The position numbers were made by a program, and so were the translations under genes. DNA of 64,000 nucleotides, from NCBI RefSeq assembly GCF_056746865.1, contig NZ_CM163382.1. One strand, given 5' to 3'. The notes under the pieces were generated by a model that had not been told where the DNA came from, did no database searches, and worked only from the letters and a program-made list of their open reading frames with translations. Below are positions 20,249 through 29,803 of this stretch, one piece after another. The stretch's first letter is position 1. Every line of letters begins with the position of its first letter.

Positions 20249-21139
20249 ATGTCTCTACACTCTCCAGGTAAAGCGTTTCGCGCTGCACTGTCTAAAGAAA
20301 ATCCATTGCAGATTGTTGGCACCATCAACGCTAACCATGCGCTGCTGGCGCAGCGTGCCGGATATCAGGCGATTTATCTTTCCGGCGGTGGCGTGGCGGC
20401 AGGGTCGCTGGGGCTGCCCGATCTCGGTATTTCTACCCTTGATGACGTGCTGACCGACATTCGCCGTATCACCGACGTCTGCTCGCTGCCGCTGCTGGTA
20501 GATGCGGATATCGGTTTTGGTTCTTCTGCTTTTAACGTTGCGCGCACCGTGAAATCGATGATTAAAGCCGGTGCGGCGGGATTGCATATTGAAGATCAGG
20601 TTGGTGCGAAACGCTGCGGCCATCGCCCGAATAAAGCGATCGTCTCGAAAGAGGAGATGGTGGATCGGATCCGCGCGGCGGTGGATGCGAAAACCGATCC
20701 TGATTTTGTGATCATGGCGCGCACCGATGCGCTGGCGGTTGAAGGGCTGGATGCGGCGATCGAGCGTGCGCGGGCCTATGTTGAAGCGGGTGCCGAGATG
20801 TTGTTCCCGGAGGCGATTACCGAACTCGCTATGTACCGCCAGTTTGCCGATGCGGTGCAGGTGCCAATCCTCGCCAACATTACCGAATTTGGCGCAACAC
20901 CGCTGTTTACTACCGATGAATTACGCAGTGCCCATGTTGCAATGGCGCTGTACCCGCTTTCAGCGTTTCGCGCCATGAACCGCGCCGCCGAACATGTCTA
21001 CAACGTCCTGCGTCAGGAAGGCACGCAGAAAAGCGTCATCGACACCATGCAGACCCGCAACGAACTGTACGAAAGCATCAACTATTACCAGTACGAAGAG
21101 AAGCTCGACGACCTGTTTGCCCGTAGCCAGGCGAAATAA
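20249..21139 (+). CDS. prpB: 2-methylisocitrate lyase
   Basis: ORF track 296 aa; isocitrate lyase/PEP mutase family; prp operon synteny. Confidence 0.95.
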
Positions 21140-21160
21140 AAAACGCCCGTTGGTTGTATT

Positions 21161-21625
21161 CGACAACCGATGCCTGATGCGCCGCTGACGCGGCTTATCA
21201 GGCCTACGGGATGAACTGAACTGTAGGTCGGATAAGACGCATAGCGTCGCATCCGACAACCGATGCCTGATGCGCCGCTGACGCGGCTTATCAGGCCTAC
21301 GGGGTGAACTGAACTGTAGGTCGGATAAGACGCATAGCGTCGCATCCGACAACCGATGCCTGATGCGCCGCTGACGCGGCTTATCAGGCCTACGGGGCGT
21401 GCTGAACTGTAGGTCGGATAAGACGTATGGCGTCGCATCCGACAACCGATGCCTGATGCGCCGCTGACGCGACTTATCAGGCCTACGGGGTGAACTGAAC
21501 TGTAGGTCGGATAAGACGCATGGCGTCGCATCCGACAACCGATGCCTGATGCGACGCTGACGCGGCTTATCAGGCCTGCGGGGTGAACTGAACTGTAGGT
21601 CGGATAAGACGCATAGCGTCGCATC
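21161..21625. repeat. tandem array of five 93-bp units built from inverted REP palindromes (BIME-type)
   Basis: cgacaaccgatgcc recurs at 21161, 21254, 21347, 21440, 21533; spurious ORFs 20960..21790 and 21085..21624 show a 31-aa periodic peptide. Confidence 0.9.
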
Positions 21626-21671
21626 CGACAACAATCTCGACCCTACAAATGATAACAATGACGAGGACAAT

Positions 21672-22841
21672 ATGAGCGACACAACGATCCTGCAAAACAG
21701 TACCCATGTCATTAAACCGAAAAAATCTGTGGCACTTTCTGGCGTTCCGGCGGGCAATACGGCGCTCTGCACCGTGGGTAAAAGTGGCAATGACTTGCAT
21801 TACCGTGGTTACGATATTATTGATCTGGCGGAACATTGCGAATTTGAAGAAGTGGCGCATCTGCTGATCCACGGCAAACTGCCGACCCGTGACGAACTCG
21901 CCGCTTACAAAACGAAACTGAAAGCCCTGCGTGGTTTACCAGCTAATGTGCGTACCGTGCTGGAAGCCTTACCGGCGGCGTCGCACCCGATGGATGTTAT
22001 GCGCACCGGCGTTTCCGCGCTCGGCTGCACGCTGCCAGAAAAAGAGGGGCATACCGTCTCTGGCGCGCGGGATATTGCCGACAAACTGCTGGCGTCACTT
22101 AGCTCGATTCTTCTCTACTGGTATCACTACAGCCACAACGGCGAACGCATCCAGCCGGAAACCGATGACGACTCCATCGGTGGTCACTTCCTGCACCTGC
22201 TGCACGGCGAAAAGCCATCGCAAAGCTGGGAAAAGGCGATGCATATCTCGCTGGTGCTGTACGCCGAACACGAGTTTAACGCCTCCACCTTTACCAGCCG
22301 GGTGATTGCGGGCACTGGCTCTGATATGTATTCCGCGATTATTGGCGCGATTGGTGCACTGCGCGGGCCGAAGCACGGCGGGGCGAATGAAGTGTCGCTG
22401 GAGATCCAGCAACGCTACGAAACGCCGGACGAAGCCGAAGCCGATATCCGCAAGCGGGTGGAAAACAAAGAAGTGGTCATTGGTTTTGGTCATCCGGTTT
22501 ATACCATCGCCGACCCGCGTCATCAGGTGATCAAACGTGTGGCGAAGCAGCTCTCGCAGGAAGGCGGCTCACTGAAGATGTACAACATCGCCGATCGCCT
22601 GGAAACGGTGATGTGGGAGAGCAAAAAGATGTTCCCCAATCTCGACTGGTTCTCCGCTGTTTCCTACAACATGATGGGCGTTCCCACCGAGATGTTCACA
22701 CCACTGTTTGTTATCGCCCGCGTCACCGGCTGGGCGGCGCACATTATCGAACAACGTCAGGACAACAAAATTATCCGTCCTTCCGCCAATTATGTTGGAC
22801 CGGAAGACCGCCAGTTTGTCGCGCTGGATAAGCGCCAGTAA
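21672..22841 (+). CDS. prpC: 2-methylcitrate synthase
   Basis: ORF track 389 aa; citrate synthase family. Confidence 0.95.
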
Positions 22842-22874: not shown

Positions 22875-24326
22875 ATGTCAGCTCAAATCAACAACATCCG
22901 CCCGGAATTTGATCGTGAAATCGTTGATATTGTCGATTACGTGATGAACTACGAAATCAGCTCCAAAGTAGCCTACGACACCGCACATTACTGCCTGCTC
23001 GACACGCTCGGCTGCGGTCTTGAAGCTCTCGAATACCCAGCCTGTAAAAAACTGCTGGGGCCAATTGTCCCCGGCACCGTCGTACCTAACGGCGTGCGCG
23101 TCCCCGGAACTCAGTTCCAGCTCGACCCCGTCCAGGCGGCATTTAACATCGGCGCGATGATCCGTTGGCTCGATTTCAACGATACCTGGCTGGCGGCGGA
23201 GTGGGGGCATCCTTCCGACAACCTCGGCGGCATTCTGGCAACGGCAGACTGGCTTTCGCGCAACGCGGTCGCCAGCGGCAAAGCGCCGTTGACCATGAAA
23301 CAGGTGCTGACCGCAATGATCAAAGCCCATGAAATTCAGGGCTGCATCGCGCTGGAAAACTCCTTTAACCGCGTCGGCCTCGACCACGTTCTGTTAGTGA
23401 AAGTGGCTTCCACCGCCGTGGTCGCCGAAATGCTCGGCCTGACCCGCGAGGAAATTCTCAACGCCGTTTCGCTGGCGTGGGTGGACGGTCAGTCGCTGCG
23501 CACCTATCGCCATGCGCCGAACACCGGCACGCGTAAATCCTGGGCGGCGGGCGATGCCACTTCCCGCGCGGTACGTCTGGCACTGATGGCGAAAACGGGC
23601 GAAATGGGTTACCCGTCAGCCCTGACTGCGCCTGTGTGGGGCTTCTACGACGTCTCCTTCAAAGGTGAGTCGTTCCGCTTCCAGCGCCCGTACGGTTCTT
23701 ACGTGATGGAAAATGTGCTGTTCAAAATCTCCTTCCCGGCGGAGTTCCACTCCCAGACGGCAGTTGAAGCAGCGATGACGCTCTATGAACAGATGCAGGC
23801 AGCAGGCAAAACGGCGGCAGATATCGAAAAAGTGACCATTCGCACCCACGAAGCCTGTATTCGCATCATCGACAAAAAAGGACCGCTCAATAACCCGGCA
23901 GACCGCGACCACTGCATTCAGTACATGGTGGCGATCCCGCTGCTGTTCGGACGCTTAACGGCGGCAGATTACGAGGACAACGTTGCGCAAGATAAACGCA
24001 TCGACGCCCTGCGCGAGAAGATCAATTGCTTTGAAGATCCGGCATTTACCGCTGACTACCACGACCCGGAAAAACGTGCCATCGCCAATGCCATAACCCT
24101 TGAGTTCACCGACGGTACGCGATTTGAAGAAGTGGTGGTGGAGTACCCCATTGGTCATGCTCGCCGCCGTCAGGATGGCATTCCGAAGCTGGTCGATAAA
24201 TTCAAAATCAATCTCGCGCGCCAGTTCCCGACTCGCCAACAGCAGCGCATTCTGGAGGTTTCTCTCGACAGAGCTCGCCTGGAACAGATGCCGGTCAATG
24301 AGTATCTCGACCTGTACGTCATTTAA
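22875..24326 (+). CDS. prpD: 2-methylcitrate dehydratase
   Basis: ORF track 483 aa; MmgE/PrpD family. Confidence 0.95.
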
Positions 24327-24365: not shown

Positions 24366-26252
24366 ATGTCTTTTAGCGAATTTTATCAGCGTTCGATTAA
24401 CGAACCGGAGCAGTTCTGGGCCGAGCAGGCCCGGCGTATTGACTGGCAGACGCCCTTTACGCAAACGCTCGATCACAGCAATCCGCCGTTTGCCCGTTGG
24501 TTTTGTGAAGGCCGAACCAACTTGTGTCACAACGCTATCGACCGCTGGCTGGAGAAACAGCCAGAGGCGCTGGCGCTGATTGCCGTCTCTTCGGAAACAG
24601 AAGAAGAGTGCACCTTTACCTTCCGCCAGTTACATGACGAAGTGAATGCGGTGGCCTCAATGCTGCGCTCGCTGGGTGTGCAGCGCGGCGATCGGGTGCT
24701 GGTGTATATGCCGATGATTGCCGAAGCGCATATTACTCTGCTGGCTTGCGCGCGCATTGGCGCTATTCACTCGGTGGTGTTTGGGGGATTTGCCTCGCAC
24801 AGCGTGGCGGCGCGAATTGATGATGCTAAACCGGTGCTGATTGTCTCGGCTGATGCCGGAGCGCGCGGTGGCAAAATCATTCCCTATAAAAAATTGCTCG
24901 ACGATGCGATAAGTCAGGCGCAGCACCAGCCACGCCATGTTTTGCTGGTGGATCGCGGGCTGGCGAAAATGGCACGCGTCAGCGGGCGGGATGTCGATTT
25001 CGCGTCGTTGCGCCATCAACACATCGGCGCGCGGGTACCGGTGGCGTGGCTGGAATCCAACGAAACCTCCTGCATTCTCTACACCTCCGGCACGACCGGC
25101 AAACCTAAAGGCGTGCAGCGTGACGTTGGCGGATATGCGGTGGCGCTGGCGACCTCGATGGACACCATTTTTGGCGGCAAAGCGGGCGGTGTGTTCTTTT
25201 GTGCTTCGGATATCGGCTGGGTGGTGGGGCATTCGTATATCGTCTACGCGCCGCTGCTGGCGGGGATGGCGACTATCGTTTACGAAGGATTACCGACCTG
25301 GCCGGACTGCGGCGTGTGGTGGAAAATCGTCGAGAAATATCAGGTTAGCCGGATGTTCTCAGCGCCGACCGCCATTCGCGTGCTGAAAAAATTCCCTACC
25401 GCTGAAATTCGCAAACACGATCTCTCGTCGCTGGAAGTGCTCTATCTGGCGGGGGAGCCGCTGGACGAGCCGACCGCCAGTTGGGTGAGCAATACGCTGG
25501 ATGTGCCGGTCATCGACAACTACTGGCAGACCGAATCCGGCTGGCCGATTATGGCGATTGCTCGCGGTCTGGACGACAGGCCGACGCGTCTGGGAAGCCC
25601 CGGCGTGCCGATGTATGGCTATAACGTGCAGTTGCTTAATGAAGTCACCGGCGAACCGTGTGGCGTCAACGAGAAAGGGATGCTGGTGGTGGAAGGGCCA
25701 TTGCCGCCGGGGTGTATTCAGACCATTTGGGGCGACGACGACCGCTTTGTGAAGACGTACTGGTCGCTGTTTTCCCGTCCGGTGTACGCCACTTTTGACT
25801 GGGGTATCCGCGATGCTGACGGTTATCACTTTATTCTCGGGCGCACTGACGATGTGATTAACGTTGCCGGGCATCGGCTGGGGACGCGCGAGATTGAAGA
25901 GAGTATCTCCAGTCATCCGGGCGTTGCCGAAGTGGCGGTGGTTGGGGTGAAAGATGCGCTGAAAGGGCAGGTGGCGGTGGCGTTTGTCATTCCGAAAGAG
26001 AGCGACAGTCTGGAAGACCGAGACGTGGCGCACTCGCAAGAGAAGGCGATTATGGCGCTGGTGGACAGCCAGATTGGCAACTTTGGTCGCCCGGCGCACG
26101 TCTGGTTTGTCTCGCAATTGCCGAAAACGCGATCCGGAAAAATGCTGCGCCGCACGATCCAGGCGATTTGCGAAGGACGCGATCCTGGGGATCTGACGAC
26201 CATTGATGATCCTGCGTCGTTGGATCAGATCCGCCAGGCGATGGAAGAGTAA
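24366..26252 (+). CDS. prpE: propionyl-CoA synthetase
   Basis: ORF track 628 aa; AMP-binding motif YTSGTTGKPKG. Confidence 0.95.
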   Translation: MSFSEFYQRSINEPEQFWAEQARRIDWQTPFTQTLDHSNPPFARWFCEGRTNLCHNAIDRWLEKQPEALALIAVSSETEEECTFTFRQLHDEVNAVASMLRSLGVQRGDRVLVYMPMIAEAHITLLACARIGAIHSVVFGGFASHSVAARIDDAKPVLIVSADAGARGGKIIPYKKLLDDAISQAQHQPRHVLLVDRGLAKMARVSGRDVDFASLRHQHIGARVPVAWLESNETSCILYTSGTTGKPKGVQRDVGGYAVALATSMDTIFGGKAGGVFFCASDIGWVVGHSYIVYAPLLAGMATIVYEGLPTWPDCGVWWKIVEKYQVSRMFSAPTAIRVLKKFPTAEIRKHDLSSLEVLYLAGEPLDEPTASWVSNTLDVPVIDNYWQTESGWPIMAIARGLDDRPTRLGSPGVPMYGYNVQLLNEVTGEPCGVNEKGMLVVEGPLPPGCIQTIWGDDDRFVKTYWSLFSRPVYATFDWGIRDADGYHFILGRTDDVINVAGHRLGTREIEESISSHPGVAEVAVVGVKDALKGQVAVAFVIPKESDSLEDRDVAHSQEKAIMALVDSQIGNFGRPAHVWFVSQLPKTRSGKMLRRTIQAICEGRDPGDLTTIDDPASLDQIRQAMEE

Positions 26253-26278
26253 GGTATTGTCGGATGCGTCGTGTGGCG

Positions 26279-26994
26279 CATCCGACACCGTGCGCCGATG
26301 CCTGATGCGACGCTGACGCGTCTTATCATGCCTACAGGCCTGAACCGTAGGTCGGATAAGGCGCTCGCGCCGCATCCGACACCGTGCGCCGATGCCTGAT
26401 GCGACGCTGGCGCGTCTTATCATGCCTACAGGTCTGAACCGTAGGTCGGATAAGGCGCTCGCGCCGCATCCGACACCGTGCGCAGATGCCTGATACGACG
26501 CTGGCGCGTCTTATCATGCCTACAGGCCTGAACCGTAGGTCGGATAAGGCGCTCGCGCCGCATCCGACACCGTGCGCCGATGCCTGATGCGACGCTGGTG
26601 CGTCTTATCATGCCTACAGGCCTGAACCGTAGGTCGGATAAGGCGCTCGCGCCGCATCCGACACCGTGCGCAGATGCCTGATGCGACGCTGGTGCGTCTT
26701 ATCATGCCTACAGGCCTGAACCGTAGGTCGGATAAGGCGCTCGCGCCGCATCCGACACCGTGCGCAGATGCCTGATACGACGCTGGCGCGTCTTATCATG
26801 CCTACAGGCCTGAACCGTAGGTCGGATAAGGCGCTCGCGCCGCATCCGACACCGTGCGCAGATGCCTGATGCGACGCTGGTGCGTCTTATCATGCCTACA
26901 GGTCTGAACCGTAGGTCGGATAAGGCGCTCGCGTCGCATCCGACACCCCGCGCCGATGCCTGATGCGACGCTGACGCGTCTTATCAGGCCTACC
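26279..26994. repeat. tandem array of about 7.5 units of a 94-bp REP-pair repeat (BIME-type)
   Basis: catccgacacc recurs every 94 bp from 26279 to 26937; five identical-frame 61-aa spurious ORFs at 94-bp spacing in ORF track. Confidence 0.9.
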
Positions 26995-27152: not shown

Positions 27153-28412
27153 GTGTCGCAAGATAACAACTTTAGCCAGGGGCCAGTCCCGCAGTCGGCG
27201 CGGAAAGGGGTATTGGCATTGACGTTCGTCATGCTGGGATTAACCTTCTTTTCCGCCAGTATGTGGACCGGCGGCACTCTCGGAACCGGTCTTAGCTATC
27301 ATGATTTCTTCCTCGCAGTTCTCATCGGTAATCTTCTCCTCGGTATTTACACTTCATTTCTCGGTTACATTGGCGCAAAAACCGGCCTGACCACTCATCT
27401 TCTTGCTCGCTTCTCGTTTGGTGTTAAAGGCTCATGGCTGCCTTCACTGCTACTGGGCGGAACTCAGGTTGGCTGGTTTGGCGTCGGTGTGGCGATGTTT
27501 GCTATTCCGGTGGGTAAGGCAACCGGGCTGGATATTAATTTGCTGATTGCCGTTTCCGGTTTACTGATGACCGTCACCGTCTTTTTTGGCATTTCGGCGC
27601 TGACGGTTCTTTCGGTGATTGCGGTTCCGGCTATCGCCTGCCTGGGCGGTTATTCCGTGTGGCTGGCTGTTAACGGCATGGGCGGCCTGGACGCATTAAA
27701 AGCGGTCGTTCCCGCACAACCGTTAGATTTCAATGTCGCGCTGGCGCTGGTTGTGGGGTCATTTATCAGTGCGGGTACGCTCACCGCTGACTTTGTCCGG
27801 TTTGGTCGCAATGCCAAACTGGCGGTGCTGGTGGCGATGGTGGCCTTTTTCCTCGGCAACTCGTTGATGTTTATTTTCGGTGCAGCGGGCGCTGCGGCAC
27901 TGGGGATGGCGGATATCTCTGATGTGATGATTGCTCAGGGCCTGCTGCTGCCTGCGATTGTGGTGCTGGGGCTGAATATCTGGACCACCAACGATAACGC
28001 ACTCTATGCGTCGGGTTTAGGTTTCGCCAACATTACTGGTATGTCGAGCAAAACCCTTTCGGTGATTAACGGTATTATCGGTACGGTCTGCGCATTATGG
28101 CTGTATAACAATTTTGTCGGCTGGTTGACCTTCCTTTCGGCAGCTATTCCTCCGGTAGGTGGCGTGATCATTGCCGACTATCTGATGAACCGTCGCCGCT
28201 ATGAGCACTTTGCGACCACGCGTATGATGAGTGTCAATTGGGTGGCGATTCTGGCGGTCGCGCTGGGGATTGCCGCAGGCCACTGGTTACCGGGAATTGT
28301 TCCGGTCAACGCGGTATTAGGTGGCGCGCTGAGCTATCTGATCCTTAACCCGATTTTGAATCGTAAAACGACAGCAGCAATGACGCATGTGGAGGTTAAC
28401 AGTGTCGAATAA
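27153..28412 (+). CDS. codB: cytosine permease
   Basis: ORF track 419 aa, polytopic membrane protein; adjacent to codA. Confidence 0.95.
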
Positions 28413-29724: not shown

Positions 29725-29803
29725 GCCGGATGCGGCGTGAACGCCTTATCCGGCCTACGTAGAGCACTGAACTCGTAGGCCTGATAAGCGTAGCGCATCA
29801 GGC
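29725..29803. repeat. REP palindrome pair between codA and cynR
   Basis: gccggatgcggcgtgaacgccttatccggcctacg ... cgtaggcctgataagcgtagcgcatcaggc. Confidence 0.7.

Follow-up and report, generated by a model that had tools for sequence, protein, structure and literature searches.

REP elements, the BIME-2 arrays that they form, the copy-number polymorphism of such arrays, and the effects of their hairpins on operon mRNAs have a literature going back to the 1980s and 1990s. The malE-malF stabilizer is one described case. Newbury et al. (1987) reportedly thought that the malE-malF REPs shield the upstream cistron from 3' exonucleases and so give differential expression within the operon, and Khemici and Carpousis (2004) is said to be a further reference for a REP stabilizer of this type. 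Older work on REP stabilizers and on attenuation by BIMEs points in the same direction as the results for REP325, an array of six tandem y/z2 pairs (naRNA1-6) between yjdM and yjdN, two co-oriented genes of one operon. Deletion of REP325 raises yjdN about 8- to 10-fold, and yjdM falls about 3-fold when the array is deleted at its native locus and far more steeply on a plasmid. Transcripts of the array form a ladder of species that end in hairpins, and the attenuation that it causes is partly Rho-dependent (10.64898/2026.03.23.713779). Genome-wide, tandem gene pairs with a REP show a higher upstream/downstream expression ratio, and the same study stresses that what a REP does depends on its context and that longer half-lives do not generally go with terminal REPs (10.64898/2026.03.23.713779).

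A BIME-2 is defined by z2 and y REPs that face in opposite directions and recur as several tandem copies joined by short linkers; at any one locus the units are well conserved, and their tandem copy number varies among strains (PMC3333891). The element that lies between prpB and prpC in K-12 MG1655 (349606-349970) is catalogued as REP25 (10.64898/2026.03.23.713779, supplement). Here, we describe the array found at the same locus in a 64-kb stretch of Escherichia coli DNA, referred to below as the window. Like the malE-malF stabilizer, it places REP hairpins in an intercistronic region, but it is a five-unit BIME-2 array rather than a single REP pair.

A BIME-2 array in the prpB-prpC spacer

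The array is wholly extragenic and lies between the prpB stop codon (21139) and the prpC start codon (21672), positions that set the length of the spacer at 532 bp. Tandem Repeats Finder reports a 93-bp period with 5.1 head-to-tail copies over 21161-21632 (96% matches, 0% indels, score 874), and an independent repeat search of the window finds 201-nt copies at exact steps of 93, 93, and 93 bp. There are five complete units (21161-21253, 21254-21346, 21347-21439, 21440-21532, and 21533-21625) followed by the first 7 bases of a sixth, the array ending at 21632. The units differ from their consensus at 1, 0, 5, 2, and 2 bases, respectively; units 1 and 2 differ from each other by a single base, and pairwise identity among the five is 92 to 99%. 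A 93-bp repeat of such length and identity far exceeds what chance would produce. A degenerate half-REP hairpin (21148..21172, plus strand) forms the left edge of the array and begins 9 nt past the prpB stop codon. Together, array and edge (21148-21632) make up about 90% of the spacer, and its repeat-free 3' end (21633..21671, plus strand) holds the prpC ribosome-binding region (GAGGA).

Each unit consists, in order, of a y-type REP, a 15-nt linker, an inverted z2-type REP, and a 6-nt linker (AACCGA). Read directly from the sequence, the first y-type REP (21171..21207, plus strand) is TGCCTGATGCG-CCGCTGACGCGG-CTTATCAGGCCTAC, and the first z2-type REP (21223..21257, plus strand), which has the opposite orientation, is GTAGGTCGGATAAGACGC-ATA-GCGTCGCATCCGAC. 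Further y-type REPs start at 21264, 21357, 21450, and 21543 and further z2-type REPs at 21316, 21409, 21502, and 21595, with the final z2 ending at 21629. Both types are imperfect palindromes within the 30- to 40-nt range of REPs and can form a stem-loop. The GTAG/CTAC foot is present in nine of the ten REPs, the exception being the fifth y copy, which has CTGC. An IHF-binding linker (L motif) is the mark of BIME-1, and the IHF consensus WATCAANNNNTTR has no match within 21140-21671. With alternating inverted y and z2 REPs, conserved tandem units, variable copy number, and linkers of 6 and 15 nt, the prpB-prpC array is a BIME-2 of REP elements. An earlier note on this DNA had described five 93-bp REP-pair repeats at 21161-21625, built of inverted REP pairs and making the spacer essentially one array of inverted REP palindromes. 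All of this holds: the two repeat searches agree on the period, y and z2 stand in opposite orientation, and their pairs account for most of the spacer.

The array of the window is the REP25 element of E. coli K-12, with which it shares its locus, flanks, 93-bp unit, and left and right junctions. The two differ in the number of units, which is four in K-12 and five in the window, and the prpB-prpC region (window positions 20700-22100) is about 95.6% identical to that of K-12. As a textbook element that is already catalogued, the array matters little for discovery. What the present analysis adds is specific, i.e., a five-copy allele, an allelic series from 0 to 5 copies, the presence of the array in Escherichia albertii, recurrent REP occupancy of the same spacer in Citrobacter, and a false RefSeq protein.

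The units also match the Rfam naRNA4 model (RF02564; 77 positions, gathering cut-off of 59.5 bits), which was built from REP325. Four z2-linker-y modules on the plus strand (21226-21297, 21319-21390, 21412-21483, and 21505-21576) score 67.4, 67.4, 63.5, and 61.8 bits, and a weak match of 36 bits lies at the left array edge (21152-21204). Both hairpins are conserved in the alignment, and six model positions are absent from the linker between them. The prp array thus resembles REP325 in being made of tandem y/z2 pairs between two co-oriented genes of one operon but has five units instead of six and a shorter inter-hairpin linker, by those six positions.

Because four units score above the Rfam gathering threshold, they might be taken for genes of naRNA4-like nucleoid-associated small RNAs that condense the chromosome with HU, a role that a 2015 mBio paper proposed for the REP325 RNAs, with homologous REPs as possible substitutes. 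We consider this very improbable for the prp units. The Rfam model recognizes essentially any z2-linker-y module, on either strand, and in the absence of propionate, prp expression is low (prpC baseMean of about 31). Moreover, deletion or overexpression of REP325/naRNA4 leaves nucleoid volume unchanged, and no REP-REP contacts were found, according to a 2026 preprint that shares an author, S. Adhya, with the 2015 paper (10.64898/2026.03.23.713779).

In the window as a whole, the REP-foot motif has 19 matches at three loci, and by megablast the array query finds up to 8 to 10 places per genome; the cognate RAYT (TnpA-REP) gene, another hallmark of REPs, would not be expected to lie in the window. 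The second of the three loci is another array (26277-26993) between prpE, which ends at 26252, and codB, which starts at 27153. It has a period of 94 bp, 7.6 copies with 96% matches, and seven naRNA4 matches of 70.6 to 72.4 bits. Its K-12 counterpart, REP26, is only 171 bp long (10.64898/2026.03.23.713779, supplement), and the prpE-codB array is therefore much expanded in the window strain. It is of BIME-2 type, like the prpB-prpC array, has the same orientation, and matches naRNA4 more strongly; it differs in its linkers and in sitting at the end of the operon instead of inside it. The genes prpCDE are therefore bracketed by two arrays of the same orientation. Two further REP-foot motifs, forming a single REP pair, lie at about 29745-29790, just downstream of codA.

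The 93-bp period has a consequence for annotation. Since 93 bp equal 31 codons and two of the three minus-strand frames of the consensus unit contain no stop codon, two long antisense ORFs stay open across the array: one of 276 aa (20960..21790, minus strand), which runs from within prpC across the array into prpB, and one of 179 aa (21085..21624, minus strand), which consists of translated repeat units. They had been called spurious when the window was first read, and they are explained as repeat artifacts. In numerous RefSeq genomes with five copies, PGAP lists the 179-aa ORF as a hypothetical protein (WP_001526095.1), but there is practically no chance that it is a genuine protein-coding gene. 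Five repeats of the 31 residues encoded by one unit of REP DNA make up its sequence; no Pfam model matches it above the cut-off; it extends over the 3' end of prpB; and alleles with 0 to 4 copies contain it in shortened form or not at all. The adjoining array gives no such ORF; its period, 94, is not divisible by 3, so the frame shifts from one unit to the next and no array-wide ORF arises. A Pfam scan of both antisense ORFs yielded sub-threshold noise plus one borderline match to SepSecS, which reaches exactly its 21.1-bit cut-off without any single matched stretch passing. Both ORFs overlap prpB (and the longer one also prpC), and their length falls with copy number. WP_001526095.1 is a propagated false gene call, and in practical terms the array is a generator of false "hypothetical proteins" in RefSeq annotations. 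At the second array, a 354-aa minus-strand ORF (25359-26423) that is mostly antisense to prpE overlaps the first ~150 bp of the repeats.

Copy number and distribution of the array

The earlier note had expected copy number to vary between strains, and it does so at this locus, from 0 to 5 across sequenced and sampled E. coli. A megablast search of 5,426 complete E. coli genomes matched the locus in about 5,220, and copy counts were inferred from match spans in two rank-spread samples of these (40 and 60 records). Among the 100 sampled records, 38 have no unit (a 44-bp spacer), 24 have one, 1 has two, 8 have three, 23 have four, and 4 have five, and the prpB-prpC locus is disrupted in the remaining 2; no allele above five units was found in this sample. 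The aggregate counts agree with the samples: identity to the window allele reaches 99% or more in about 150 records, and query coverage is below 80% in about 2,086 of 5,221 records (40%). At least 60 other E. coli, an ST69 strain included, match the window allele at 100% identity across 1401 bp (20700-22100). About 4% of the complete E. coli genomes have no match to the locus.

Sequenced spacers measure 532 bp in the window (five units), 439 bp in K-12 MG1655 (four), 346 bp in NCTC122 (three), 159 bp in p4A (one), and 44 bp in UTME-8 (none), and in O157:H7 records the one-unit span is 4 bp shorter, for a spacer of about 155 bp by span arithmetic. Spacer lengths thus differ by multiples of 93, apart from 1 to 4 bp in the flanks. 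As its three units, NCTC122 carries K-12 unit 1, a hybrid of units 2 and 3, and K-12 unit 4, an order that unequal exchange between units predicts. Copy number presumably tracks lineage: K-12 belongs to phylogroup A (four copies), O111 to B1 (none), O157:H7 to E and ST131 to B2 (one copy each), and ST69 to D (five copies). The K-12 substrain GM4792 (NZ_CP011342.2) has a three-unit span (935 bp) versus four units in MG1655 records; either a unit was lost within the laboratory history of the strain or the assembly collapsed the repeat. Short-read assemblies are also broken by the array; the 454 assembly of NCM3722, a K-12 relative, has a contig break at the "prpB // prpC repeat," and this remark is all that we found in the literature on prpB or prpC together with REP.

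Array-free records, which make up about 40% of E. coli records, keep an intact prpB-prpC pair, and the array is therefore dispensable. A copy number that ranges down to zero between intact flanking genes is what one would expect if the array were a passenger, neutral or selfish, in an intergenic site that tolerates it, drifting in its number of units and mattering to neither prp expression nor the chromosome. We regard this as the main rival to a functional reading and give it an appreciable chance, though one well below even. The comparison with other species bears on it in both directions. We scanned genome contigs with a degenerate prpC pattern, obtaining at least 120 loci; the close relatives among them were E. 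albertii, two Citrobacter, and two Photorhabdus, with Salmonella, E. fergusonii, and other Escherichia not included. Among these loci, the median prpB-prpC spacer in 85 other species is approximately 45 bp, like that of the empty E. coli allele. It is also in keeping with a passenger that REPs are mobilized by their own transposase (PMC3333891) and that REP effects are highly context-dependent (10.64898/2026.03.23.713779).

On the other side, E. albertii retains the same array, with three full units and a y REP, the last z2 REP being deleted, in a spacer of 405 bp, and its left junction is the one common to K-12 and p4A. The Citrobacter spacers also hold REPs; there is one unrelated REP pair in Citrobacter werkmanii and a single, likewise unrelated REP in Citrobacter sp. 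FP75. This suggests that REP occupancy of the prpB-prpC junction is recurrent or persistent, and it counts against a neutral passenger.

The flanks of the array speak to the direction of change. Besides the array, the empty E. coli allele is missing 9 bp (ATGATAACA) directly upstream of the prpC ribosome-binding site, which are kept in array-bearing E. coli alleles and in E. albertii and have an equivalent stretch in Citrobacter. A short direct repeat (AATGA) flanks these missing 9 bp, and the array-free allele retains ACAAC, which matches the right array end. Because E. albertii shares the array and its junction, and because the empty allele lacks ATGATAACA and keeps ACAAC, the most economical reading of these sequences is that the array would be older than the split of E. 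coli and E. albertii and that the 44-bp allele would be a later deletion.

Two strains, SCU-171 and 2017_APHA (ST131), carry deletions that remove the array with breakpoints within coding sequence, one giving a prpB'-'codB fusion that loses prpCDE and the other a prpB'-'prpC fusion. We considered whether prpCDE had been deleted by recombination between the flanking arrays and rejected this, as both inspected disrupted loci break inside coding sequence.

Probable transcription and predicted folding of the array

In the window, prpB (methylisocitrate lyase; 20249..21139, plus strand, from the ORF list and the RefSeq annotation of identical DNA) precedes the array, and prpC (2-methylcitrate synthase; 21672..22841, plus strand) lies downstream of it. 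They are followed by prpD (22875-24326) and prpE (24366-26252), the prpC-prpD and prpD-prpE spacers being 33 and 39 bp. A sigma-54 -24/-12 element (20187..20202, plus strand; TGGCACACCCCTTGCT), located 47 nt upstream of the prpB ATG, matches TGGCAC-N5-TTGCW exactly; the sole other match in the 64-kb window has a mismatch. Neither a sigma-70-like promoter nor an intrinsic terminator was detected across 20000-22500, a region that includes the spacer, and the sigma-54 element is presumed to be the sole promoter feeding transcription through the array. Given this upstream element, a spacer free of promoters and terminators, and the short later spacers, the array is almost certainly transcribed within the prpBCDE mRNA. 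Its sense strand, at 27.7% C and 31.6% G, is neither C-rich nor G-poor and therefore offers no obvious Rho-loading site, and the sole Rho-site peak beside REP25 is on the antisense strand (10.64898/2026.03.23.713779, supplement table).

Two smaller features lie in and near the control region. A 12-bp tandem (TGAAACGTTAAC, 2.6 copies, 20082-20112) precedes the sigma-54 element in the control region between the divergent prpR and prpB and may be a binding site of the activator (PrpR), and an IHF-consensus match is present at 20222-20234 on the minus strand.

The sense RNA of the spacer is predicted to be strongly structured, with a minimum free energy of -267.9 kcal/mol versus -188.6 ± 7.0 for shuffles (z = -11.3). 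In comparison with shuffles, the predicted y hairpin reaches -23.5 kcal/mol (z = -5.9) and the z2 hairpin -17.8 kcal/mol (z = -5.2). One whole 93-bp unit is predicted at -47.8 kcal/mol, in a fold that pairs the CUAC and GUAG feet across the 15-nt linker, and the half-REP at the left edge is predicted to form a 10-bp hairpin (-11.3 kcal/mol, z = -3.6). Both the location of the array inside the prpBCDE unit and extensive RNA secondary structure had been proposed in the earlier note; the promoter and terminator search supports the former, and the predicted fold is consistent with the latter.

Structure is predicted to stop short of prpC. No structure is predicted for the stretch 21630-21690 (-2.3 kcal/mol, z = +0.8) or for the 40 nt ahead of the prpC start, GAGGA included. 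An effect of the array on prpC translation is therefore less likely.

The pairing scheme was also examined in 14 distinct units taken from this window, K-12, NCTC122, p4A, and E. albertii. In these, 96.3% of stem cells are paired, versus about 30% in slid controls. A covariation test of three helices per unit in the same 14 units found none significant, with shuffles scoring equally; since the set of units is nearly invariant, this speaks neither for nor against the structure.

Candidate roles of the array

The explanation that we favor, and to which we give a slightly better than even chance, is that this REP25 BIME-2 changes copy number stepwise and acts as an RNA stabilizer and attenuator within prpBCDE. 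At the DNA level, the array would gain and lose whole 93-bp units by unequal recombination or slippage between near-identical units. RAYT (REP-associated transposase) cleavage and strand exchange may assist in this, as TnpA-REP cleaves and recombines BIMEs in vitro (PMC3333891). On induction of the operon, the array would be transcribed within the polycistronic prpBCDE mRNA and its fold would comprise ten strong REP hairpins and, in addition, five CUAC/GUAG helices. With 3'-to-5' exonucleases halted at the hairpins, decay intermediates carrying prpB would persist, and the array would cause a partial, partly Rho-dependent loss of transcription ahead of prpC. The net outcome would be more PrpB than PrpCDE in array-bearing strains relative to strains with the 44-bp spacer, possibly graded by the number of units.

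This RNA-level role is proposed because the REP325 array in yjdMN behaves in this manner. The earlier note had suggested that the array may make prpB and the genes after it differ in mRNA stability or translation; a difference in stability or expression is a reasonable proposal. Stabilization of the upstream mRNA and attenuation downstream have been shown there, and the prp array is likened to it by sequence and predicted fold. The supplement of the REP325 study holds no usable prpB/prpC expression pair (10.64898/2026.03.23.713779). The predicted fold also counts against a pure passenger, in that ten hairpins worth some -240 kcal/mol would be unlikely to go unnoticed by RNases and RNA polymerase, given the 8- to 10-fold effect of REP325.

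Alternatively, the array could act mainly on DNA by strongly attracting binding and cleavage by DNA gyrase, a property described for BIME-2s, and so manage supercoiling of the prp-cod region. In vivo gyrase cleavage sites are significantly enriched in BIME-2s, mainly in y-type REPs and independently of transcription, but the cleaved BIME-2s are a subset only (PMC6379681). The locus has five y REPs and a second BIME-2 array 4.6 kb downstream, as such a role would have it; against it, prpB and prpC were not found in the supplementary Topo-seq tables of that study (PMC6379681), and the array is missing from about 40% of records. We therefore consider a mainly DNA-level role quite unlikely.

The series from 0 to 5 units could further serve as a heritable rheostat that sets the PrpB:PrpCDE ratio, and hence the handling of toxic methylcitrate-cycle intermediates, by lineage. 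Under this reading, selection for an RNA barrier at exactly the prpB-prpC junction would account both for an array older than the split of E. coli and E. albertii and for the unrelated REPs in Citrobacter. This extension seems to us unlikely. The same natural series of 0, 1, 2, 3, 4, and 5 copies is nonetheless a handy test bed for the claim that REP arrays are tunable terminator-stabilizers.

Liang, Rudd, and Deutscher (2015) reportedly found that a REP near a stop codon can stall terminating ribosomes. At this locus, the first canonical REP starts 32 nt past the prpB stop codon, and only the weak degenerate hairpin of the left edge is as close as 9 nt; because of this distance, we give ribosome stalling at the prpB stop little weight.
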